The notes under the pieces: generated by a model
What the model saw: the letters and a program-made list of their open reading frames with translations, nothing else
Database searches by the model: none
What the model was told of the DNA's origin: nothing
DNA from: an uncultured Ignavibacteriales bacterium
GTDB lineage: Bacteria > Zixibacteria > MSB-5A5 > GN15 > FEB-12
Direction: 5' to 3'
DNA length: 64,000 nt
Assembly: GCA_964464605.1 (NCBI GenBank)
Contig: CAYXJN010000003.1
Location: 124,001 to 188,000, forward strand
Shown: piece after piece, positions 53 to 11,723 of the stretch
How positions within the stretch are numbered: the stretch's first letter is position 1
Layout of the letters: every line of letters begins with the position of its first letter
Position numbers and translations under genes: made by a program

Positions 53-1018
53 ATGCTTCATCTCGACCCCAAAGAACTTCCTGTCCAACGTATTCAATCG
101 CTCATGCTCGGCGGCGTTTCTCCGCGACCGATAGCGTTGGTATCGACGATTTCAGCCGATGGCGCCCCGAACCTCTCCCCATTCTCTTGGTTCAACTGTT
201 TCGGTTCAAATCCGCCGACGGTTGCGTTTTCACCATCACGCCGTATTCGTGACGGCAGCCTAAAACATACCTACCACAACCTGATGGCGACCAAAGAATG
301 CGTTATCCAGAGCGTGACGTATCCGATGGTACAGCAGGTATCACTCGCTTCCACGGAATACGCTGAAAGCGTGGATGAGTTTGTTAAATCAGGCTTAACT
401 AAGATCCCCTCCGACATCGTCAAACCGTTTCGCGTTGCCGAATCCCCGTTTCAGATGGAATGTGTGCTGAAGCAGATGATTCATCTCGGGGATGGCCCCG
501 GCTCCGGTAATCTGGCAATTTGCGAAGTTATCCGTTACCATATCGCTGAAGATATTTTCGAAAACAATATTATTATCCCCGACAAAATCGATCTGGTCGC
601 CCGCAACAGCGCTGATTACTACACCCGCGCCAGCGGCAATGCGATTTTTGCCGTCGAAAAACCGGTAACCCGCACCGGAATCGGGTTTGACCAATTGCCG
701 AAATTTATTTTCAGCTCGCATATTCTTACAGCCAACAACCTGGCACAATTGGCCAATACCGAACAGATACCTACCCAGGATGAGGTTCGCAGCTTTATCA
801 ACGCCCTTGAACCGGTCGAGTACAATGCGCAGGCATTCGAGCGAGCCGAAAGACAGAAGAACTACCAACAGATGTTAACCATCTCCTTAGGTGCGGTGAA
901 AACAAATCATGATGACGCTACACATTGTCTCGAACGAGTAGCTAAAACTGCTCTCGACAAAAACGATGCCCTGTTTGGCTTCAAAACACTGTTGTTCGCT
1001 GAATCAGTAACGCACTAA
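53..1018 (+). CDS. Flavin reductase-like (DIM6/NTAB family) FMN-binding protein with C-terminal extension
   Basis: PRPIALVST, NLSPFSWFN, KHTYHNL and PFRVAESPFQMEC motifs; first gene seen of a Phe/Tyr catabolic run. Confidence 0.85.
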   Translation: MLHLDPKELPVQRIQSLMLGGVSPRPIALVSTISADGAPNLSPFSWFNCFGSNPPTVAFSPSRRIRDGSLKHTYHNLMATKECVIQSVTYPMVQQVSLASTEYAESVDEFVKSGLTKIPSDIVKPFRVAESPFQMECVLKQMIHLGDGPGSGNLAICEVIRYHIAEDIFENNIIIPDKIDLVARNSADYYTRASGNAIFAVEKPVTRTGIGFDQLPKFIFSSHILTANNLAQLANTEQIPTQDEVRSFINALEPVEYNAQAFERAERQKNYQQMLTISLGAVKTNHDDATHCLERVAKTALDKNDALFGFKTLLFAESVTH

Positions 1019-1022
1019 TCCG

Positions 1023-2969
1023 ATGTCTGAACCGCTCTGGATACCGTCACGTCAACGGATTCAAAAATCCCGCATGTATCAGTTTCTGAAAAAGCGGGAG
1101 GCGGCAACCTATCTTTCATTTCCTGATTATCACGCGCTCTACAATTGGTCGATTGCAAACATCGATTCATTCTGGGAAGCAATCTGGGACGAAGCCGAAA
1201 TTATCCACTCACAAAAATATACATCTGTCCGTACCGGAGCAGAAATGCTCGATACCAAATGGTTCACGGGCGCAAAACTGAATTTTGCAGAAAATCTTCT
1301 GCGCTATCGTGACAACCAAACCGCGCTGATCGGTTACGCCGAAGACAGCGAAACAATTCGCATCAGTTATGCTGAGTTGTTTGCACAGGTAGCATCGCTG
1401 GCCGCTTATTTTCGCTCCATCGCCGTAAAACCGGGAGATAGAATCGCCGGGTATATGCCGAATATTCCGGAAACAGTGATTGCGATGCTGGCCACCACGG
1501 CTATCGGCGCTATATGGTCCTCCTGCTCCCCCGACTTTGGTATTCAGGGAGTGCTCGACCGATTCGGACAGATTACTCCGAAAGTATTGATCACCGCACA
1601 CGGAAACCGGTATGCCGGAAAAGAGATCGATACCTACGAACGAGCGCTATTGGTGGCAAATCAGATTCCGGAAATCGAGCAGATCATAGTCGTCACTCGC
1701 TTAAAAGAAATTACCAACAAGTCATTACCGGCAAACGTGACACTCTGGAATACCGCGTTATCACAAAAAACAAATGAACTCGATTTCTATCAGGCACCGT
1801 TTGATTATCCGCTCTATATCATGTACTCCTCCGGCACAACGGGTAAACCGAAATGTATGGTCCATGGCACGGGTGGAACATTGCTGCAGCACTTTAAAGA
1901 ACTCGCTTTGCATACTGATTTACGACGTGATGATGTCATTTTCTATTACACCACTTGCGGATGGATGATGTGGAACTGGCTGATCTCTTCTCTGTCAATC
2001 GGTGCAACGGTTCTGCTGTATGATGGCGCACCTTCGCATCCGAATATCGACGTCCTCTGGAATATCGCGGAGACGGAAAGAATCTCCGTTTTCGGAACCA
2101 GCCCCAAATTCTTAGCCGCGTGTGACCATTTAGCCCGTTACCCCAGCCGCGACCATAATCTCGAAAAATTACGTGCTATTCTTTCTACCGGCTCCCCCCT
2201 TTCCGAAGAGCAATTCCGCTGGGTGTATAAACAGGTGAAAGCGGATTTACAATTATCATCTATCTCCGGCGGAACGGATATTGTTTCCTGTTTTATGCTC
2301 GGTTCTCCGATGCTTCCGGTCTACCCCGGCGAAATTCAATGTCGCGGCTTAGGAATGGATGTACACGCCTTCAATGACAATGGTAAACCGGTTATCGATG
2401 AAGTCGGCGAGTTAGTTTGCAAATCTCCATTTCCGTCCATGCCGGTCTCTTTCTGGAATGACCCGAATGGAAACGCATATAAGGCTGCATATTTTGATCA
2501 TTACCCGAATATTTGGCGGCACGGGGACTTTATTAAAATTACCGCGCACGGCGGAGTGATTGTCTATGGCCGTTCCGATGCCACCCTCAACCCCGGCGGA
2601 GTGCGAATCGGCACTGCCGAAATTTATGACCCGGTGGAAAGCCTGCCGGAAATTCAGGATTCACTGGTTATCGGCCAGCAAATCGACGGCGATGTCCGTA
2701 TCATCTTGTTTGTCGTTCTGCGGGATGGACAAACACTGACCAATGAGTTGAAAGACCGTATACGGGCTAAAATCCGTGAAACCCAAACCCCCCGGCATTT
2801 ACCTGCAAGAATCATCCAGATTCTGGATGTCCCTCGCACTATTAGCGGGAAAAAAGTCGAACTGGCGGTGGCCAATATTATCCATGGTCGGACGGTGACT
2901 AACCGGGATGCCCTGGCCAATCCTGCTGCCTTAGACCAGTTTACGGATCTGGCCGAGCTGCATACGTGA
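1023..2969 (+). CDS. Acetoacetate--CoA ligase
   Basis: YIMYSSGTTGKPK AMP-binding loop, TTCGWMMWNWL, SISGGTD, GRSDATLNPGGVRIGTAEIY, ALANP C-terminus. Confidence 0.93.
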   Translation: MSEPLWIPSRQRIQKSRMYQFLKKREAATYLSFPDYHALYNWSIANIDSFWEAIWDEAEIIHSQKYTSVRTGAEMLDTKWFTGAKLNFAENLLRYRDNQTALIGYAEDSETIRISYAELFAQVASLAAYFRSIAVKPGDRIAGYMPNIPETVIAMLATTAIGAIWSSCSPDFGIQGVLDRFGQITPKVLITAHGNRYAGKEIDTYERALLVANQIPEIEQIIVVTRLKEITNKSLPANVTLWNTALSQKTNELDFYQAPFDYPLYIMYSSGTTGKPKCMVHGTGGTLLQHFKELALHTDLRRDDVIFYYTTCGWMMWNWLISSLSIGATVLLYDGAPSHPNIDVLWNIAETERISVFGTSPKFLAACDHLARYPSRDHNLEKLRAILSTGSPLSEEQFRWVYKQVKADLQLSSISGGTDIVSCFMLGSPMLPVYPGEIQCRGLGMDVHAFNDNGKPVIDEVGELVCKSPFPSMPVSFWNDPNGNAYKAAYFDHYPNIWRHGDFIKITAHGGVIVYGRSDATLNPGGVRIGTAEIYDPVESLPEIQDSLVIGQQIDGDVRIILFVVLRDGQTLTNELKDRIRAKIRETQTPRHLPARIIQILDVPRTISGKKVELAVANIIHGRTVTNRDALANPAALDQFTDLAELHT

Positions 2970-3053
2970 CCTCAAAATGGCGGTTCCTGCTTGCCTTTGA
3001 ACCGCCTGCCGATATATGTTTATAAGAGTCAGTAACGGGATGAAAGGATAACC

Positions 3054-4913
3054 ATGCCCTTCGGAGTACCAGCGTTTTCACATCAGGCACCCCAGCGTTT
3101 TTGCAAACCGGGAACTACCCATACTACCGGTGCAGCAGCAAAACGGCCGATTTGGGAAACTGTCGATAATGACGCGCTCAAAAAACTTCCGAATCATCTC
3201 AAGCAATTCATAGTCGACCAGCGTTACGATGATTACACCGCGCAGGACCATGCGGTCTGGCGGTATATTATGAAACAGGCGATCTATTTCCTGCGTGAAA
3301 ACGCGCATCGCTTGTACTTCAAAGGATTGCTTGAAACCGGGATCGACTTAAACGCTATCCCCCGCATTACCGACATGAACCGAATCCTCGGCGCGATCGG
3401 CTGGGGTGCAGTGGCGGTCGATGGGTTTATCCCTCCGGCAGCCTTCATGGAATTCCAGGCTTACAAAGTTCTGGTTATCGCCTGCGAAATGCGGCAGATA
3501 CACCATATCGAATACACCCCGGCGCCGGATATCGTGCATGAAGCCGCCGGCCATGCACCGATTATTGTCGACCATGACTACGCCGCCTACTTACAGCGGT
3601 TTGGCGCAATCGGTGCGAAGGCGATGTCTTCCCGCAAAGATTTCGAACTCTACGAAGCTATCCGCCACTTGTCGATTATCAAAGAAGTACCCGGTTCTGA
3701 TCCGGAAGCGATCAAACACGCCGAGCAAGTCGTCGCTGAACGGCAGAAAAATCTCGGCGCACCCTCTGAAATGGCGCGCTTAAGCCGCCTGCACTGGTGG
3801 ACAGTTGAATATGGCCTTATCGGCAATCTGATGAATCCGAAAATCTACGGCGCAGGATTGCTTTCCTCTATCGGTGAGTCCGGAACCTGTTTGGATGAAC
3901 ACGTCAAAAAGATTCGTTATTCGATTGATGCGCAAAATTACCCGTTCGATATCACCACCCAGCAGCCGCAGTTGTTTGTCGTGGAAGAATTCGATGAACT
4001 GACAACGGTGCTTGAGCAATTCGCCGATCAGATGGCGTTTCGTGTCGGCGGCAAATACGGCATCGACGCCGCCATCGAATGCAACAATGTATCAACTGTC
4101 GAGCTTTCCTCCGGAATACAGGTAACAGGAACATTTACTGAAGCGTTATTCCATAATCAGCAGCCAAGCTTTATTAAATCGACCAGTGCATCGGCCTTGG
4201 CATACCAATACACCGAATTGCCGGGACATGATAAAGGATATCATCGTGACGGTTTCAGCACCCCGATTGGCCGTTTAGCTGAAAGCACGACTCCGCTTGA
4301 GAACATGAACGGCTCGCAGCTTGAGGCGATGAATATCCGTGAAGGTGCGCAGTCACAGCTGATTTTTGAAAGCGGTATTACGGTGAATGGCTGTTTGGAA
4401 AAAATCGAACGGAAAGATGGCAAAAACATCCTGTTCGTTTTCACCAATTGCACTGTTATGAATGGCTCGACGACCCTGTTTAGACCGGAATGGGGGGCAT
4501 TCGATATGGCGATCGGTGAAAAAGTCGTTTCGGTCTTCAATGGCGCCGCCGACAAAGATGCCTATGAACAGATTGCGTTAGTGGGCAAAGAACGTTCAAT
4601 CAAAGTTACGTATGACAGTAAACAGCAGCGTTTGCACGGTTTATACAAGCAAGTACGGGATGCCCGCGAAGGGCGCGCGCCAGTTTCGGTTATTCCGGAA
4701 ATCTGGAACAGCATTCAGCGTGATTATCCCGATGACTGGCTCTTGGCAATGGAGATGTGCGAACTGTTGACCCGCGAAGATATATACCCCGAGCAGCGCG
4801 TCGCCATGCGCAGTTGGCTTGAAGCGAAACTGACGCATGAGCCGGAGCTAACCAAGTTAATCAAAGACGGATTCAATTTAATCGACTTACGAAAATTCAA
4901 TCCGAAAGATTGA
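3054..4913 (+). CDS. phhA: Pterin-dependent aromatic amino acid hydroxylase (phenylalanine 4-monooxygenase, long form)
   Basis: YTPAPDIVHEAAGH and WWTVEYGL (2-His-1-Glu iron triad), YGAGLLSSIGE; ~290-aa C-terminal extension; AAAGGA SD upstream. Confidence 0.9.
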   Translation: MPFGVPAFSHQAPQRFCKPGTTHTTGAAAKRPIWETVDNDALKKLPNHLKQFIVDQRYDDYTAQDHAVWRYIMKQAIYFLRENAHRLYFKGLLETGIDLNAIPRITDMNRILGAIGWGAVAVDGFIPPAAFMEFQAYKVLVIACEMRQIHHIEYTPAPDIVHEAAGHAPIIVDHDYAAYLQRFGAIGAKAMSSRKDFELYEAIRHLSIIKEVPGSDPEAIKHAEQVVAERQKNLGAPSEMARLSRLHWWTVEYGLIGNLMNPKIYGAGLLSSIGESGTCLDEHVKKIRYSIDAQNYPFDITTQQPQLFVVEEFDELTTVLEQFADQMAFRVGGKYGIDAAIECNNVSTVELSSGIQVTGTFTEALFHNQQPSFIKSTSASALAYQYTELPGHDKGYHRDGFSTPIGRLAESTTPLENMNGSQLEAMNIREGAQSQLIFESGITVNGCLEKIERKDGKNILFVFTNCTVMNGSTTLFRPEWGAFDMAIGEKVVSVFNGAADKDAYEQIALVGKERSIKVTYDSKQQRLHGLYKQVRDAREGRAPVSVIPEIWNSIQRDYPDDWLLAMEMCELLTREDIYPEQRVAMRSWLEAKLTHEPELTKLIKDGFNLIDLRKFNPKD

Positions 4914-4920
4914 TTCGGCT

Positions 4921-5256
4921 ATGCCGCCGTTAATCGAACTGCACTGCTCGCCGCTTCCCAAAGGAACACCCGCCCTTAGTTCCGAACAATACGCACAGTA
5001 TATCGACGACCTCCCGCACTGGACAATTACCAATTCCGGCAAAGCGATCGAACGTAATTTTGTGTTTAAAAATTTCGCGGAAGCATTAGTCTTTGTGAAC
5101 AAAGTCGGCGCGCTGGCCGAAGAGGAAGAACATCACCCTGATATCCTGATGCATGGCTGGAAAAACGTGCGTATATCTTTGTACACGCACACGGTTGGTG
5201 GATTATCGCTCAATGATTTTATTGTCGCGGCGAAAACAGATCAACTCTGCAAATAG
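4921..5256 (+). CDS. phhB: Pterin-4a-carbinolamine dehydratase
   Basis: FKNFAEAL, EEHHPDI, YTHTVGGLSLNDFIVAAK; directly follows the hydroxylase. Confidence 0.95.
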   Translation: MPPLIELHCSPLPKGTPALSSEQYAQYIDDLPHWTITNSGKAIERNFVFKNFAEALVFVNKVGALAEEEEHHPDILMHGWKNVRISLYTHTVGGLSLNDFIVAAKTDQLCK

Positions 5257-5958
5257 TTACAATTTCCCGGCCTGATTGCCGATTGTAATCGATTCAACCA
5301 ATACATCCGGCGGCTGGTTAATCGCGAAAACAATCGCTTCAGCTACTTTATCGGGGGAAAGCATTTTCTCCCGAGGCCAATTACCGGGAACCGTATGCCA
5401 AAGCTCGGTGTCGGTTGCGCTCGGATAGACGTTTACCACTCGAATCCCCCGCTCACGAACCTCTTCCCGCAAACTTTGCGAAAACCCTTCAAGCGCAAAC
5501 TTGGTGGTGCAATAACTGCCCCACTTCGGAAATCCATTTTTTGAGGCAATGGAAAGAATATTGACGATACTTGCCCCGCGATGCATATGCGGCAGGAGTC
5601 CCTTGGCAATAATAAACGGCGCAGTCACGTTTACCGACAAAGCATCCTGCCATTCGTTGATACCCAGCTGCTCAATCGGTTTTACCAGTGTCATACCGGC
5701 ATTGTTGATAACAGCATCGAACGATTTATTCTGAATCGCAACGACCATCGCTTCAACGTCACTCGCGTTGCGGAAATCATGATTGAGTTCAGTTATCAAG
5801 CATGCATCCGATTTCCGCTCCATCAAATGCACCGTTTCAGAAAGCGCTTTTTTGTCCCGCCCGTGCAGAAAAATATCGACGCCGCTTGCCGCTAAGTGAA
5901 CCGCTATCGCCCGTCCGATACCGCGACTGGCTCCGGTTATCAAATACCGTTTCATCAC
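5257..5958 (-). CDS. SDR oxidoreductase, probable sepiapterin reductase-like
   Basis: TGASRGIG, NNAG, S...YCTTK catalytic motif; overlaps the PTPS stop in the folE-PTPS operon. Confidence 0.75.
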   Translation of the reverse strand: MMKRYLITGASRGIGRAIAVHLAASGVDIFLHGRDKKALSETVHLMERKSDACLITELNHDFRNASDVEAMVVAIQNKSFDAVINNAGMTLVKPIEQLGINEWQDALSVNVTAPFIIAKGLLPHMHRGASIVNILSIASKNGFPKWGSYCTTKFALEGFSQSLREEVRERGIRVVNVYPSATDTELWHTVPGNWPREKMLSPDKVAEAIVFAINQPPDVLVESITIGNQAGKL

Positions 5959-7187
5959 ACACCTCCCGGCGTATCACGTCTGAGCGTGAATCGATTATTC
6001 GGCGTTTCCCAGAGCCGCATGCGGAAAGGATCTCGCTCGAACACCGCCTTTCCTTTATCCCAAAGTCCGCGCAAAATATTTTCACCGGTGCTCGGGCGAT
6101 CGGCAAAATAGGGAATTTCGGCGTCAAGATGCTTGTAATTCCAGTCAGCGACTATGCTCTGCATCATCTGCTCGAATGTCGGTAACGGAAACAACGTTCC
6201 GCTGGTTTCATCTAATGAGCCGTCAAGTGCGCACTCGATAAGGTACTCATGCCCATGCCCGGCCGGATTGTTGCATTTGCCATAGAGTTCACGATTTTCC
6301 GAAGCATTGAATGACTTCGCATTGAGCCTGTGCGCAGCAAAAAAGTGCGTCGTAACTCCCATAACAAAACGAGAGCTATTAAGACATTCGACGTAAAAAT
6401 TATCATGTTCATGAATGCGTACGCGAATAACCGGGATGGAAGGACGCAAGCGGCGATACAAAATAGCGGCTAACGATTCGGTCGTATTCGGCTCGGTTTT
6501 GAATTCCGGCAGTTGTTCAGTTAAATTGGTGTGGTCAAGCTGCGCGCGTAACGATTCGACGGCATGATTGACTTCCGAATACGGTAAATGCGTCCCGATT
6601 TTTTCTTCAACGTTTCCGCCTAATGTCACCCGCACCCGGTATTCATGCCCATGCCCTTTCGGTGAGGCTGCCGCGCCGATTAATTTTTCATTTTCTGAAT
6701 CACTCAACTTTGGCGACCAGGTTCGCCGTGCGGCAGAGAACGAAAATGAGTAATGCTTTTCGATACGTCCATCGGCATAGGCAACCGCAGCAGTATATGG
6801 GGATTCCTGAAGATAACAGGATACCAATGACGCCGTCTCATTAACAAATAATGATTCCGCTTCTCTATATAATTCCCGCGAAAGATTTTCAACCGTCGCG
6901 GGCATCCGGTGAAACGGCGGGGTATCGAGATTCAGATATTTGTGGTCGTAACGGGAATCCAAAAGTAGTTTAATTTTTTCTTTGATAACGGAGATATTCA
7001 AGATCATTCCGGTCGCCAGGTCGATCGGCCCATGAAAGGAAAAAAATGCGACATAATTATGCCCATGCCCCAGCTTCCCGTATGATTCGGTATCGTACTG
7101 TTTTTTGTTTTGTTCTTCCGTCCAGTCTTCCCGCCAACAGCGATGGGAAGAGGAAAACTCGAAACGCTTGCTGATTGTTGCGTACAT
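5955..7187 (-). CDS. 6-pyruvoyl-tetrahydropterin synthase with three tandem PTPS (T-fold) domains
   Basis: Three GHGH(N/E)Y motifs and three TxE(N/S) motifs; third domain has YGKCNNPAGHGHEY (CX5HGH, PTPS-II type). Confidence 0.88.
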   Translation of the reverse strand: MYATISKRFEFSSSHRCWREDWTEEQNKKQYDTESYGKLGHGHNYVAFFSFHGPIDLATGMILNISVIKEKIKLLLDSRYDHKYLNLDTPPFHRMPATVENLSRELYREAESLFVNETASLVSCYLQESPYTAAVAYADGRIEKHYSFSFSAARRTWSPKLSDSENEKLIGAAASPKGHGHEYRVRVTLGGNVEEKIGTHLPYSEVNHAVESLRAQLDHTNLTEQLPEFKTEPNTTESLAAILYRRLRPSIPVIRVRIHEHDNFYVECLNSSRFVMGVTTHFFAAHRLNAKSFNASENRELYGKCNNPAGHGHEYLIECALDGSLDETSGTLFPLPTFEQMMQSIVADWNYKHLDAEIPYFADRPSTGENILRGLWDKGKAVFERDPFRMRLWETPNNRFTLRRDTPGGV

Positions 7188-7195
7188 GGAAGCGG

Positions 7196-7744
7196 TTATT
7201 TCCCGATGAGTTTCATAAACTCGGTGCGGGTCGCATTTTCGGTTAAAAACTCACCGAGCAGGCATGAGGTAATCATCGTTGAGTTTTGTTTCTCAACGCC
7301 GCGCATCATCATACACAAATGCTTGGCCTCAATAACAACCGCCACACCGCGTGCTTTGGTGTAGGTCATCATGCAATCGGCAATCTGCTTGGTCAGACAT
7401 TCCTGAATCTGCAATCGCCGCGCGAAAACATCGACAATCCGCGCAACTTTCGACAGTCCGATAATCGAATCATTCGGAATATAGGCGACATGGCATTTCC
7501 CGATAAACGGTAGCAGGTGATGCTCGCACATCGAATAAAGTTCGATATCTTTTACCAAAATCATTTCATGCGATTTCGCCTTGAATATCGCTCCGTTGAT
7601 AATCGTATCAATATCCTGCGAATATCCCTGTGTCAGAAATTTATACGCACGGGCTGCCCGCTCCGGAGTTCTGCGAAGCCCCTCACGGTTGACATCCTCG
7701 CCCAGGCCGACAAGCAGGTCGTTAAATACCTTTTCTAATGACAT
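7196..7744 (-). CDS. folE: GTP cyclohydrolase I
   Basis: [43 protein letters not shown]. Confidence 0.97.
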
Positions 7745-7827
7745 GCGGTCCTCTTTATATTCTTAACGCGTTACCGGTAAAACATAGCATGAAAACGGCG
7801 CTTCCACAACGGTCGGAGATTTCCGAT

Positions 7828-8859
7828 TTATGTATTACCGGAAAAATGGTCCCATCCCGCTTTGGGCAGCGGTTCGCGCTTTCCACCAGAAGTAACAAGC
7901 CAGCGGCCATTTTGTTCACCGGTAATTATTCCTATTTCCGCGCAGGCGATACCATTTTGCTGAGCGATTGTTTCAATGAGGCGAATATCGGTATCTGCTC
8001 GTACAGTAAACAGCAATTCATACGATTCACCGCTGTTCAGAATAAAATCTTGAGTCGATTTTCCGGTCGCCTGAGTGGCTTGAGATAAAATCCGGTTTTG
8101 CGTAAGCGAATCGATATTCAGTTCACAGCCGACTTTGGATGATTCACAGATATGCGCGAGATCAGTACAGACGCCATCGCTGACATCGATCATCGCCGTC
8201 GCCAAACCGGATTCTGCTAACGCAACACCCAATATCACTCGAGGCGTCGGTGCCAAAAGCGCATCAACACAGGACTGTAACTCTTTTGGATACTTGTTCC
8301 CGAATTGCTCAAGTACTTTCAATCCTGCTGCGGCCATTCCGGGTGTACCGGAAACGAATACTTTGTCTCCCGGTTTTGCTTGTGAGCGAGTTAGCAGCTG
8401 TTTCGGAGACACAAAACCGAGCAGGGTAATGTCGATACAAATCTCCTGCGATGACCGCGCCAAATTGCCGCCGATAATGGTAGTGTTGTAGGTGGCAGCT
8501 TCGGAAACAATCCCCTGATATAAAGCGTCAAAAAATTCAGAAGGCAGTTCAGCCGGCAATCCGAGTGAAACCAATGCAAATGCCGGCTTCCCCCCCATGG
8601 CGGCGATATCGCTCAGATTCACCGCTACCGTTTTTCTGCCGATCTGCTCCGGTGATGACCAATCGCGACGAAAATGATTTCCCTCAATTTGAATATCATT
8701 AGTCACTAACAGCAATCGGCTGTCATCGATACGAATAACTGCGGCATCATCCCCAATGCCGATGATTACATCTTTCGGGTTCGTATTCGGCAACATACGG
8801 TGAATCCGCTGGATAAGTTCCGCTTCACCGATTGCCGCTATGGTACGAAAATCAGCCAT
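7828..8859 (-). CDS. thiL: Thiamine-monophosphate kinase
   Basis: GIGDDAA, EGNHF, VNLSDIAAMGG, MIDVSDG, C-terminal GWDHF. Confidence 0.92.
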   Translation of the reverse strand: MADFRTIAAIGEAELIQRIHRMLPNTNPKDVIIGIGDDAAVIRIDDSRLLLVTNDIQIEGNHFRRDWSSPEQIGRKTVAVNLSDIAAMGGKPAFALVSLGLPAELPSEFFDALYQGIVSEAATYNTTIIGGNLARSSQEICIDITLLGFVSPKQLLTRSQAKPGDKVFVSGTPGMAAAGLKVLEQFGNKYPKELQSCVDALLAPTPRVILGVALAESGLATAMIDVSDGVCTDLAHICESSKVGCELNIDSLTQNRILSQATQATGKSTQDFILNSGESYELLFTVRADTDIRLIETIAQQNGIACAEIGIITGEQNGRWLVTSGGKREPLPKAGWDHFSGNT

Positions 8860-8861
8860 TA

Positions 8862-9932
8862 TTATTTCTTTTCTGCCAGCGCTTTCATATACGCAGGCCA
8901 GAACGGGTCCGACTCCGGAGAGGTTAGCGCTTTTGTTTGACCGCTCTCCACTATCCGCACACCTTTTTCTTTCGGAACAATCTCGCCGATTTCAAAGGCG
9001 GTAATCCCTTCATTACCCAAATGTGTTAACAATTCAGCTTTCTTATTCGGTCGGCAGGTCAACACAAGTGTCCCTTCGCTAGATGCTGAATATGGATCAA
9101 TCGAAAACAATGAGCATATTTGCTCTGTTACCTGCCGAATATGAATCGAGCTTCTATTGATCAGCATTCCGGTATTGGCTGCTTCTGCAATTTCGCACAG
9201 CGCGCCAAAGACACCCCGCTCAGTAGCGTCGTGCATCCCGGTTACACCGTTGCCTCTTACACCAATTTGCACGGCGGTAAGGGCATCTTTGACGACCGAC
9301 ATTTCATCAAAAACTGATTCCGCTTCTTTTGCTGTCTTGTCACCGCAGGCTGCACGGATTTCATCTGAAAACATGACACCCATAATCCCGGTTGTTTCGA
9401 TTGCCGCTCCTTTGGTGAGAATGACGGCATCATTGATCTGCGCCATCGATGGAGTGAGATACTTTTCCCTTTCCCCGACAGAAAAAATAGTCGCCCCGCC
9501 TAACATCGGATAGGAGCAGTCATCATACCATCCGGTGTGTCCGGTAACAATCGCGATTCCCAAATCGTTACACGCAGCATGGACCGCATCCCACAGCTGC
9601 TCAAATTCTTTTTCCGACATTTCCGGCGGAAGATTCAAGTCTATCGACAGGTATTGCGGTGGAATCCCGGAAGTTGTGGCATCGGAGGCGATAATATGCA
9701 CCGCGAACCAGGCTGCCCGTTTCCAGCCGAATTCCGGCACGACAAAGAACGGATCGGATGTCATAATCAGCACATTACCGTTCCCGATATCGATAATCCC
9801 GTTGTCACTCCCGACTTTCGGTCCAACCAGTACACTGCTGTTTTGCCGTCCTAATTTGGGCAAAATAGCCCGTTCAAACAGGCTGACGGAAACTTTGCCG
9901 GAAGCGGCTGGTTTTAAACGATTTTTTTGCAT
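8862..9932 (-). CDS. AIR synthase/PurM-like family protein (HypE-like, lacking the C-terminal PRIC)
   Basis: TSDP, ASDATTSG, VTGHT, MHDATERG, SSEGTL motifs; probable start ATG 9932 (ORF track begins 9983). Confidence 0.8.
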   Translation of the reverse strand: MQKNRLKPAASGKVSVSLFERAILPKLGRQNSSVLVGPKVGSDNGIIDIGNGNVLIMTSDPFFVVPEFGWKRAAWFAVHIIASDATTSGIPPQYLSIDLNLPPEMSEKEFEQLWDAVHAACNDLGIAIVTGHTGWYDDCSYPMLGGATIFSVGEREKYLTPSMAQINDAVILTKGAAIETTGIMGVMFSDEIRAACGDKTAKEAESVFDEMSVVKDALTAVQIGVRGNGVTGMHDATERGVFGALCEIAEAANTGMLINRSSIHIRQVTEQICSLFSIDPYSASSEGTLVLTCRPNKKAELLTHLGNEGITAFEIGEIVPKEKGVRIVESGQTKALTSPESDPFWPAYMKALAEKK

Positions 9933-10067
9933 TTCTTCGGGTACCTTACAAGTCAAAAAGCAAGGAAATCGGGGTATCGTCAAGCAGCTTGTAAACTATC
10001 TGTAAATACGCCGGAAACAATACTTTCACTGTTTTTTCCGTTAGGACTCACTCATATTACCCGTACC

Positions 10068-11723
10068 ATGAAAAAAATAATCCTGTCTCTCTTCGTTCCC
10101 CTTTGTATCGGACTCTCTCTACCGGTTTCTGCCCAGCAGGATACCACACTCGCGAAGCCGAAACTGGCTGTGCTTTTGGTTATTGACCAAATGATGCCAG
10201 AATTTCTCTCCCGTTTTGACAAATTCTATACCGGTGGATTCCGCCGTATCAACGACAATGCATTCGTGTTCGACAGCGGCGCGCATGACCATGCCTGCAC
10301 CGAAACCGGACCGGGGCATGCGACAATCGGCACCGGACGACACCCGTCAAAAAACGGTATCATTGCCAATGAATGGTACGATCGGAAACTCGATCGATCG
10401 ATGTACTGCGTAGAGGATTCCGCCACCACGCTCACCGGGCTGCCGGATCAAAAGGGATATTCCCCGCGTAACATCGCAACCGATGGGTTAGGCGACTGGC
10501 TCAAAAAAGCGAATCCCGCTAGCAAGGTTATCTCCCTTTCCCTAAAAGACCGTTCTGCGGTAGGAATGGGCGGACAGCATCCGGATGCGGCAGTCTGGTG
10601 GAATCGAAACGACGGAAACTTTGTGTCTTCAACGTATTATGATTCGATATTGCCGGCATGGGTAACTGCGTTCAACGAACGGCGCGTGTTTGATTCGCTA
10701 CGCAATAAAACATGGGAAAAAATATTGCCGGATTCCTGCTATGATCTTTCCACCTTCGACAGTTTCCCCGGTGAAAGCAACGGCCCGGATTTATTAAATA
10801 ATTTTCCTCATGAACTCACATGGGATTCTGCGAACACTAAACCGTTTACCCGGACATATTTGTATGTCTCCCCCTTCGCTGATGAAGCACTGCTCAATCT
10901 CAGCAAGGACGCGATTACCGTCGAACAACTCGGTACGGATAGTATTCCTGATTTGCTGGCACTCAGCCTTTCTTCTTCCGATGCAATCGGACACACCTAC
11001 GGCCCCAACAGTCAGGAAATTCAGGATTATTATATTCGTATCGATCGGAAACTCGGTGAGTTTTTCTCCTTTTTAGATTCGACTGTCGGCGCACAATCCT
11101 ACGTTGTCGCGCTTTCAGCTGATCATGGTGTGCTCCCCTTGCCGGAATATCTCGATATGTTCGGCATTCCCAGCGAACGGATTTTAACTAAAACTATGGA
11201 TTCGGATTTAGAGCAGATTATCACAAGAATGGAATCGGAAGGACTCGGTAAAAAAGACTGGATAAAAGGAAATCCGCAGGAAGTATATCTCGTCGCCGAT
11301 TCCGGTACGACTGACTCAGTAAAAACAGCGGTCATCAACCGCCTGCAGAATGAGCTAAAATTGCTGCCATATGTTGCGGATGCCTACACAAGAGCCCAAA
11401 TGATGACCAAGATGCAAAGCCCGGATCCGTTTTTGACATACTACCGCAACAGCTTCTTCCCTGCCCGCTTTGCTGATTTGATTGTTCGCTACAAAGAAAA
11501 TAATTTGATGTTCGCCTCACAGTATGGTACTACTCACGGGACACCTTATTGGTATGACCGGCATGTACCGTTGCTCTTTTTTGGCGCGGGAGTAACGAAG
11601 GGGAATAACCCGAAACCGGCGCGGACAGTCGATATTTCCGTGACGATTGCGGCGATGCTTAAAATAAAGACACCAAAAGATGTTGACGGTGAATCACTCT
11701 TGTCAGCAATTCATCATCAGTAA
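10068..11723 (+). CDS. Secreted alkaline phosphatase superfamily protein (PafA-like)
   Basis: Signal peptide MKKIILSL, VIDQM, TETGPGHATIGTG (Thr nucleophile), SLKDRSA, DAIGH, ADHG, THGTPY. Confidence 0.9.
   Translation: MKKIILSLFVPLCIGLSLPVSAQQDTTLAKPKLAVLLVIDQMMPEFLSRFDKFYTGGFRRINDNAFVFDSGAHDHACTETGPGHATIGTGRHPSKNGIIANEWYDRKLDRSMYCVEDSATTLTGLPDQKGYSPRNIATDGLGDWLKKANPASKVISLSLKDRSAVGMGGQHPDAAVWWNRNDGNFVSSTYYDSILPAWVTAFNERRVFDSLRNKTWEKILPDSCYDLSTFDSFPGESNGPDLLNNFPHELTWDSANTKPFTRTYLYVSPFADEALLNLSKDAITVEQLGTDSIPDLLALSLSSSDAIGHTYGPNSQEIQDYYIRIDRKLGEFFSFLDSTVGAQSYVVALSADHGVLPLPEYLDMFGIPSERILTKTMDSDLEQIITRMESEGLGKKDWIKGNPQEVYLVADSGTTDSVKTAVINRLQNELKLLPYVADAYTRAQMMTKMQSPDPFLTYYRNSFFPARFADLIVRYKENNLMFASQYGTTHGTPYWYDRHVPLLFFGAGVTKGNNPKPARTVDISVTIAAMLKIKTPKDVDGESLLSAIHHQ

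Follow-up and report, generated by a model that had tools for sequence, protein, structure and literature searches.

A stretch of 64,000 nucleotides (referred to here as the window) has been analysed from the genome of an uncultured sludge bacterium, labelled Ignavibacteriales in GenBank and placed among the Zixibacteria by GTDB. It comprises positions 124,001 to 188,000 of contig CAYXJN010000003.1 in assembly GCA_964464605.1, a genome of 2.8 Mb in 18 contigs that is 100% complete. Near the start of the window, at 3054-7744, three minus-strand genes encoding GTP cyclohydrolase I (folE), a 6-pyruvoyl-tetrahydropterin synthase (PTPS) and a short-chain dehydrogenase/reductase (SDR) converge on the plus-strand genes of a phenylalanine hydroxylase (PAH) and a pterin-4a-carbinolamine dehydratase (PCD). 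It is probable, at roughly 0.65, that the folE-PTPS-SDR operon supplies a biopterin-type cofactor for a catabolic PAH, and that its PTPS is a dimer of single-chain pseudo-trimers. The pathway is of a known kind; the new element is the asymmetric PTPS, in which three domains are joined in one chain (hereafter the triple PTPS).

FolE would convert GTP to dihydroneopterin triphosphate, from which domain 3 of the triple PTPS would form 6-pyruvoyl-tetrahydropterin, and the SDR, acting as a side-chain reductase, would reduce this to a biopterin-type tetrahydropterin. The resulting pterin would serve the convergently encoded long-form PAH, with PCD dehydrating the 4a-carbinolamine after each PAH turnover. 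All five open reading frames were found at the positions given for them in an earlier note on this DNA, and the family matches confirm the arrangement that it had described, with folE, PTPS and SDR on the minus strand meeting phhA-phhB on the plus strand. The first gene of the minus-strand operon, folE (7196-7744; TIGR00063 247.6 bits vs a cut-off of 181.6, NF006825 263.9 vs 174), is followed after a gap of 8 nt by the gene of the triple PTPS (5955-7187, minus strand), whose 410-residue product contains three PF01242 stretches. The stop codon of the latter (TGA, 5957-5955) overlaps the start of the SDR gene, taken either as the GTG at 5958 or as the ATG at 5955, which suggests that the SDR is translationally coupled to the PTPS gene. 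The product of this third gene (5257-5958, minus strand; PF00106 151.6 bits) is a classical SDR of 233 residues and a putative side-chain reductase of the sepiapterin type. On the opposite strand, the long-form aromatic amino acid (phenylalanine) hydroxylase, of 619 residues as called (3054-4913; NF010657 757.9 bits vs a cut-off of 346), precedes a PCD/PhhB of 111 residues (4921-5256; PF01329 102.7 bits vs 26). The two gene runs abut at 5256/5257, as had also been noted earlier, the PCD stop (TAG) occupying 5254-5256 and the SDR stop 5257-5259 (TTA on the plus strand, TAA on the minus strand).

The arrangement of the five genes is no accident of assembly, because positions 2900-8000 are spanned by a 15.8-kb contig of sequencing run X11 with 4 differences and the 5256/5257 junction is bridged without any difference by an 845-nt contig of run X15, which belongs to another study. 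Run X11 is nearly identical to this DNA and could itself be its source. The zero spacer between the convergent genes is a strain-specific feature: in a related strain from run X14, a rhizosphere metagenome, the 26 bases at 5244-5269, where the PCD and SDR genes end, are replaced by 941 others, and the corresponding spacers in relatives measure roughly 20-70 bp.

The three domains of the triple PTPS, which occupy residues 1-140 (domain 1; 6768-7187, minus strand), 141-272 (domain 2; 6372-6767) and 273-410 (domain 3; 5958-6371), are 23-30% identical to one another. Signatures of the PTPS subfamilies, as set out in one study, are CxxxHGH for PTPS-I/QueD, CxxxxxHGH for PTPS-II and ExxHGH for PTPS-III (PMC5041015). 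The PTPS-II signature, to which the earlier note had pointed, is indeed present, but it occurs only once, as CNNPAGHGH at residue 305 of domain 3, in a gene that proves to be a three-domain fusion; domains 1 and 2 lack the Cys, and domain 3 lacks the Asp-His pair. This motif aligns with GKCNNPNGHGH of rat PTPS, and the Cys and zinc His residues of domain 3 correspond in position to those of that enzyme. Domain 3 matches rat PTPS 1b66 at E 1.7e-23, the values for the rat, human and Caenorhabditis elegans enzymes all lying at about 1e-22 to 1e-23. The Cys has been described as the catalytic base of PTPS (PMC2229834). A motif scan found the QueD motif and the PTPS-III motif in none of the three domains. 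With these features, the product of the triple PTPS is expected to be 6-pyruvoyl-tetrahydropterin, and 6-carboxytetrahydropterin (CPH4) or 6-hydroxymethyl(dihydro)pterin appears unlikely, because QueD and FolB are encoded elsewhere in the genome.

A residue census was taken over 119 full-length relatives, these being the best 120 matches less one short sequence. Within domain 3, the catalytic PTPS-II domain, the zinc ligands H286, H311 and H313, the cysteine C305 and the glutamate E394 are kept in 119 of 119. Its Asp-His pair is missing and is represented here by N350-Y351, with position 351 occupied by Tyr in 98, Phe in 11, Trp in 3 and His in 1 of the 119. Domain 1 displays a different pattern. 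Its Asp-His pair is invariant (D81 and H82, both 119/119), whereas its own pocket, which has no Cys, is decaying (H15 in 62, H41 in 68, H43 in 58 and E128 in 61 of 119). Domain 2 has a remodelled pocket in which R154, replacing the first zinc His, is invariant together with H179, H181 and E260 (all 119/119); D218 is kept in 117 and H219 in 116, and the position equivalent to the Cys is Ala in 112 of 119. A complete and invariant set of three zinc His residues is thus confined to domain 3, the first His of domain 2 being an invariant Arg. In a quick tree built from 57 domain sequences, the three domains fall into one clade each (support by the SH-aLRT branch test of 100, 99 and 98 for domains 1, 2 and 3), and the triple architecture thus appears to have arisen once, before the sampled family diversified. 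The same tree does not resolve the relations of the three domains to one another and to the paired single-domain PTPS genes described below.

An AlphaFold model of the triple PTPS was obtained with high confidence (pLDDT 95.2, pTM 0.91). Each of its domains matches a PTPS monomer in Foldseek, with a template modelling (TM) score of about 0.9 when normalised to the target. No PDB chain in the same search covers more than one domain, that is, a third of the model, and TM scores normalised to the query are at most 0.32. A model with two copies of the chain passes the mark set for binding, with an ipSAE of 0.78 against 0.00 for the best of 3 controls; among proteins solved as pairs of one chain, 20 of 30 attain this mark, compared with 1 of 23 among those solved as single chains, and, as solved PTPS hexamers exist, the pass of the homodimer may come from likeness to them. 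The runs of the homodimer model agree in at least 96% of contacts, with a partner pLDDT of at least 91. In all 25 contacts of least predicted error, domain 3 of one chain meets domain 1 of its partner; the pairs 309 with 83 and 285 with 84 are among them. The two chains contribute symmetrically to the listed interface, in which the pocket of domain 2 and its Asp-His pair also take part.

In the rat enzyme, the Asp-His pair of each active site is reportedly donated from the opposite trimer, and the title of a 1995 paper by Buergisser speaks of an 'intersubunit catalytic triad'. Canonical PTPS is built from two trimers, its active sites lying where three monomers of the hexamer meet (PMC7546909). 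The models suggest that the triple PTPS is a single-chain pseudo-trimer which probably dimerises head to head, as the canonical hexamer does, giving a pseudo-hexamer. The site of domain 3, with its zinc site and Cys305, would then be completed by Asp81-His82 from domain 1 of the partner chain, and such a supply in trans is plausible from the modelled contacts. The decaying pocket of domain 1 would face a domain 3 that carries no Asp-His pair, and domain 2 would face its twin, domain 2, with the invariant, Cys-less Arg/His/His/Glu pocket. A dimer would thus have two canonical sites, where a hexamer has six, together with two non-canonical pockets that are conserved. This pairing of domains, as modelled, would account for every kept and every lost residue of the census.

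The hydroxylase is aligned with PDB entry 7vgm (592 residues) over residues 44-613 at E 5.6e-155. The motifs HEAAGH at residue 162 and GAGLLSSIGE at residue 266 are present, which we take to hold the iron ligands. Two features of the protein deserve mention. The first 42 residues (3054-3180) have no counterpart in NF010657 or 7vgm, both alignments starting at 43-44; the true start may therefore lie downstream of 3054, and as this segment has no internal ATG, a GTG or TTG codon would be needed. Residues of about 330-619 (about 4040-4913) show no Pfam domain, only a sub-threshold MIX match, and this part is covered by 7vgm. Literature on 7VGM consisted of methods papers, with none on the biology of the structure (supplements lay outside the scope of this and the other literature searches). 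The PCD gene starts 8 nt after the PAH stop, and its product carries the motif EEEEHHP...W...H...D at residue 67; the NCBIfam equivalog models all remain under their cut-offs (best 106.4 vs 137).

The PAH-PCD pair forms the end of an eight-gene plus-strand run. Four of these genes precede the window, at about 119470-124040 of the same contig (G000:C3; locus L097:7470-12040), and encode a 4-hydroxyphenylpyruvate dioxygenase (HPPD; TIGR01263 388 bits), a distant homologue of homogentisate dioxygenase (HgmA-like; TIGR01015 50.7 bits, far under the cut-off, with human HGO 1ey2 matched at E 1.3e-7), an aminotransferase of the HisC family (aromatic type) and an FAA-hydrolase-family protein (PF01557 182 bits). 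No maleylacetoacetate isomerase is found among these four. Within the window, they are followed by a flavin-reductase-like protein of 321 residues (53-1018, plus strand; PF01613 65.1 bits) and an acetoacetate--CoA ligase (1023-2969, plus strand; NF002937 960.6 bits vs a cut-off of 639, TIGR01217 886 bits), which activates acetoacetate to acetoacetyl-CoA, the last step of phenylalanine and tyrosine catabolism. The eight-gene operon would take phenylalanine, through tyrosine and homogentisate, to fumarate and acetoacetyl-CoA. The hydroxylase appears to be catabolic because it shares this operon with HPPD, the HgmA-like protein, the FAA hydrolase and acetoacetate-CoA ligase, and the same context points to phenylalanine as its substrate. 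The flavin-reductase-like protein matches 3bpk, component B of nitrilotriacetate monooxygenase, at E 6.5e-22, and is, speculatively, a candidate quinonoid-dihydropterin reductase.

The triple-PTPS family is sizable, with 3218 proteins of 225-718 residues recovered at E<=1e-5, the best named of which come from Zixibacteria/GN15 and are annotated as '6-carboxytetrahydropterin synthase'. This public name is probably wrong, judging from the motifs and from the presence of a separate QueD. Gene neighbourhoods were gathered from contigs of one genome per species, where 335 of 346 candidate stretches were confirmed and the best 80 loci were used; these come from metagenome-assembled genomes (MAGs) labelled Zixibacteria, Ignavibacteriales and Verrucomicrobiota (Chthoniobacterales, Udaeobacter), with one Acidobacteriota. 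The coordinates of L009, a locus labelled Zixibacteria, coincide with those of G128, which belongs to the same family as the window's genome, and this assigns the window to the Zixibacteria. Synteny was assessed by tblastn with the proteins of the window, and 62 of the 80 loci extend at least 5 kb downstream (long loci). The gene directly upstream of the triple PTPS is folE in 77 of the 80 loci, and in 52 the next gene downstream encodes an SDR orthologue (42-55% identity). Of the 62 long loci, 27 carry PAH, always as the convergent long form: 26 of them have both SDR and PAH, 15 SDR alone, 1 PAH alone and 20 neither. PCD was found in 14 and acetoacetate-CoA ligase, by PAH, in 16 long loci. 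Other members of the catabolic operon also occur near the triple PTPS: of the 80 loci, 48 have the HgmA-like gene and 37 have HPPD, and the genes of the flavin-reductase-like protein, the aminotransferase and the FAA hydrolase are found in 23, 19 and 17, respectively. It had been stated in advance in the earlier note that unlinked operons in relatives would speak against its interpretation; synteny was found and the linkage holds.

Verrucomicrobial loci without SDR or PAH carry, in this order and on one strand, HPPD, the HgmA-like gene, sometimes the flavin-reductase-like gene, folE and the triple PTPS, and in four Verrucomicrobial loci the flavin-reductase-like gene is directly upstream of folE (L022:8649-9254, L029:8746-9348, L047:8657-9259 and L053:142-747). 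The long-form PAH is encoded elsewhere in 5 of 5 Verrucomicrobial genomes whose folE-PTPS pair has no PAH nearby. Seven further loci (L014, L015, L021, L030, L031, L032 and L041) have PCD convergent to SDR with no PAH beside it, and genes for a TonB-dependent receptor or for cytochrome-oxidase assembly downstream. Single-domain forms of PTPS-II have also been observed in the phylum. In L103, from another Zixibacteria family, a single PTPS-II gene lies between two SDR genes whose products are 28-35% identical to the SDR of the window. In one family of the phylum (L098:6179-7558 and L099-L102), a pair of neighbouring single-domain PTPS-II genes precedes folE; the first is canonical, and the second combines CX5HGH with a [ST]GEN motif like that of domain 3 and lacks the Asp-His pair. 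These two genes are likely to encode a hetero-oligomeric PTPS.

The co-distribution of PTPS and PAH was examined across a sample of the phylum comprising 151 genomes, of which 150 are at least 90% complete, with PTPS matches accepted at E<=1e-10 and PAH taken as PF00351. A triple PTPS of full-length type was present in 45 genomes, PTPS of single-domain size only in 32, and no match in 74. PAH occurs in 47 of the 151, namely in 36 of the 45 with a triple PTPS, in 11 of the 32 with a single-domain PTPS (all in family f5) and in 0 of the 74 without a match, although kin are not independent, so that these counts overstate the support and show a pattern rather than a test. The pattern is that, in this phylum, PAH depends on a gene of the PTPS-II type.

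Other pterin genes of the genome were also identified. The folE of the operon is the sole PF01227 match in the genome (G000), which has no match to FolE2 (PF02649); a second folE, dedicated to this pathway, was considered and rejected, the gene being single-copy. A folB gene adjoins folK (TIGR00525 110.9 bits vs a cut-off of 72.15) and is the only FolB-family gene present, the FolX model scoring 26 bits vs a cut-off of 152, so that FolX is absent. A canonical QueD (HPCYRLHGH) is encoded on another contig, within a queC-queE-queD operon. Because folE is the only GTP cyclohydrolase I gene in a genome with folB-folK and queCED, it appears to be common to the folate, queuosine and PTPS branches and thus not dedicated to phenylalanine hydroxylation.

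Several points weigh against a biopterin-type supply to PAH by the folE-PTPS-SDR operon, beyond the relatedness of the sampled genomes. Family assignments, motifs, conservation, synteny and co-distribution were observed, whereas the product, the SDR role, the operon structure and the assembly are deduced from them. The operon structure is suggested by gene spacing, and scans for promoters and terminators over 2900-8100 are at background, with 6 promoter-like sites vs 6.5 expected and 9 terminator-like sites vs 6.4; a look-up of RNA data sets listed none for the stretch. The pairing of domains is taken from the contact list of the dimer model. As the sole copy, folE may owe its position partly to housekeeping needs. 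No dihydropteridine reductase (DHPR) was identified at the locus. The motifs of the SDR (TGASRGIG at residue 8, NNAG at 85, S136 and Y149xxxK153) are common to all classical SDRs and not specific; its best NCBIfam model, NF005672, scores 211.2 bits, under the cut-off of 234. The sepiapterin reductase of Chlorobium, 2bd0, is matched at E 1.3e-19, only 39th in the PDB list and behind many unrelated SDRs, and no mammalian sepiapterin reductase (SPR) is among the 60 PDB matches listed. Moreover, the SDR is not an obligate partner of the triple PTPS, because an orthologue at E<=1e-30 is found in 0 of 5 Verrucomicrobial genomes with triple PTPS and PAH. These findings, together with the non-orthologous SDRs beside PTPS-II in other lineages such as L103 and the lack of another dihydropteridine reductase at the locus, would favour an SDR that is a recycling enzyme (an analogue of dihydropteridine reductase) or unrelated to pterins, with 6-pyruvoyl-tetrahydropterin reduced by enzymes encoded elsewhere. 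We regard this as improbable: the SDR start overlaps the PTPS stop, the gene follows the triple PTPS in most loci, and the 15 of 62 long loci with an SDR and no PAH within 10 kb fit synthesis better than recycling. The motif TGxxxRxG, which is given as the N-terminal motif of the FolM/PTR1 pteridine reductases (PMC13259868), is also missing, TGASRGIG having Gly at the diagnostic position, and the 60 PDB matches listed include no structure of a DHPR. From its coupling to the operon and its place after PTPS in 52 of 80 loci, the SDR is therefore considered a putative side-chain (sepiapterin-type) reductase. Its product may be L-erythro-tetrahydrobiopterin (L-erythro-BH4) or another stereoisomer, between which the sequence does not discriminate.

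The destination of the pterin has to be considered as well. The operon could mainly serve something else, such as another pterin-dependent enzyme, a pterin glycoside or a signal, with its convergence on PAH-PCD being secondary. Since 9 of the 45 triple-PTPS genomes have no PF00351 match, including one in a single contig (G137, 96% complete), the pterin probably has at least one PAH-independent use, a further point against a supply to PAH. PAH is missing within 10 kb in 15 of the 41 long loci with an SDR, and folE is a housekeeping gene in the window's genome. In L014, L031 and L041, PCD is convergent to SDR with PAH not beside it; by their coordinates, the PAH-less genomes G051 and G053 appear to be those of L031 and L032. 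Such relatives, with PCD and no PAH, hint at another pterin-dependent enzyme. A main use other than phenylalanine hydroxylation nevertheless seems unlikely, as PAH is never found without a PTPS match (0/74 vs 47/77) and occurs in 26 of the 41 long loci with SDR vs 1 of the 21 without. Even in the Verrucomicrobia, where PAH lies elsewhere in 5 of 5 genomes, folE and the triple PTPS share a strand run with the tyrosine-breakdown genes HPPD and HgmA-like. It is far less probable still that the triple PTPS makes 6-carboxytetrahydropterin, as QueD, or 6-hydroxymethyldihydropterin, as PTPS-III, for queuosine or folate. The public name of the family suggests the former, and the three domains together reach 112.1 bits with the QueD model TIGR03367 (cut-off 89.25); enzymes of COG0720 are also described as promiscuous (PMC5041015). 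However, neither CxxxHGH nor ExxHGH occurs in any domain, a canonical QueD is encoded in the queCED operon, folB-folK is present and domain 3 aligns best to animal PTPS. Both specific forms of this proposal were rejected, the QueD role for want of CxxxHGH and in view of the separate QueD in queC-queE-queD, and the PTPS-III folate bypass for want of ExxHGH and in view of folB next to folK.

A biopterin-type supply to PAH by the folE-PTPS-SDR operon invites comparison with known systems, above all with the animal BH4 pathway, on which the earlier note had modelled the locus. The same three enzyme classes act in the same order in animals, with PAH as consumer and PCD as recycler, and domain 3 shares CxxxxxHGH, the zinc His residues and the pterin-anchoring Glu with animal PTPS. 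The term 'animal-style' is nonetheless inappropriate: the animal enzyme consists of six identical subunits of ~140 residues, whereas here a chain of 410 residues holds three diverged domains, and the reductase is a generic classical SDR, not an SPR orthologue or one of any solved sepiapterin reductase. Animal PAH has a regulatory domain, whereas here a bacterial long form of ~600 residues (NF010657) is found; in addition, no DHPR was identified, and folE is common to folate and queuosine. As for the BH4-type supply for phenylalanine hydroxylation, the PTPS-II motif argues for a biopterin-type product, and synteny and co-distribution for its link to PAH, but the claim that it is dedicated to this purpose fails on the single folE and on the triple-PTPS genomes without PAH. 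Likewise, synthesis, use and PCD are gathered in one locus, as had been proposed, but recycling is only half present. Three features had been overlooked, namely the triple-domain nature of the PTPS, the 600-residue long form of the PAH and the position of the plus-strand pair at the end of a longer operon for catabolism.

Cyanobacteria and Chlorobium are the main bacteria in which biopterin is known, and bacterial PAHs are usually discussed together with tetrahydromonapterin, made through FolX and FolM. To our knowledge, the PTPS-II proteins of Synechococcus and Chlorobium are single-domain. A biopterin glucoside is made with PTPS-II in Synechococcus PCC 7942, a sepiapterin reductase (2bd0) leads to L-threo-BH4 in Chlorobium tepidum, and FolE is a known neighbour of PTPS-II genes (PMC5041015, PMC5445326, PMC7520308). 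These organisms resemble the present case in combining a bacterial PTPS-II with an SDR reductase. They differ in that generic SDRs match the SDR of the window at least as well as 2bd0 does, and in that the pathway here adjoins PAH-PCD and a homogentisate catabolic operon. The tetrahydromonapterin route of Pseudomonas and Escherichia coli, in which FolX and FolM supply PhhA (PMC13259868), likewise provides a reduced pterin for a bacterial PAH-PCD (phhAB) pair; the window's genome, however, lacks FolX, and its SDR lacks TGxxxRxG. Closer at hand, the SDR-PTPS-II-SDR operon of L103 shares the phylum, the inferred biopterin-type product and a link to phenylalanine breakdown, but has a canonical single-domain PTPS-II, two different SDRs and no folE in the operon, without any fusion. 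Urate oxidase and GTP cyclohydrolase IB, which give weak Foldseek matches, also place several T-fold units in one chain forming a barrel, with two units per chain as opposed to three in the triple PTPS. No multi-domain or fused PTPS was found in the literature, as judged by the 12 titles listed of 33 matching papers, nor any solved structure of one in the PDB by Foldseek. No description of tetrahydrobiopterin in Zixibacteria was found either, and the literature joining PTPS, sepiapterin reductase, bacteria and PAH was animal or clinical only.

Beyond folE, the window continues on the minus strand at 7828-9983 with thiL (TIGR01379 305.9 bits), followed by a second gene of the AIR-synthase family, whose 373-residue product is below every NCBIfam cut-off (best hypE, 71 bits). 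The plus strand at 9927-11723 encodes a PafA-like alkaline phosphatase or phosphodiesterase (NF042991 424.7 bits, under the cut-off of 650).

A wider proposal, which we hold to be possible but rather doubtful, is that the triple PTPS represents a new kind of T-fold enzyme, a homo-oligomer turned into a single-chain pseudo-trimer, in which domain 3 would carry out the zinc/Cys chemistry, domain 1 would donate the Asp-His pair and domain 2, with its R154/H179/H181/E260 pocket facing its twin, would have a second, hitherto undescribed function; the flavin-reductase-like gene, which accompanies folE in two phyla, may then encode the quinonoid-dihydropterin reductase. If this is true, domain 2 could act further on the pyruvoyl side chain or bind a pterin or nucleotide as a regulator, and its function might explain how some lineages do without the SDR. 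The label of '6-carboxytetrahydropterin synthase' would mislead metabolic reconstructions of the MAGs concerned. More broadly, the Zixibacteria and soil Verrucomicrobiota (including MAGs labelled Udaeobacter), which are uncultured but widespread, would be seen to wire a PTPS-II-based pterin supply to a phenylalanine/tyrosine catabolic operon. The triple PTPS itself would be a natural case of a homo-oligomeric enzyme becoming an asymmetric single chain, and its pattern of kept and lost residues, divided between pocket and donor, offers a testable prediction on how active sites are constructed between subunits.

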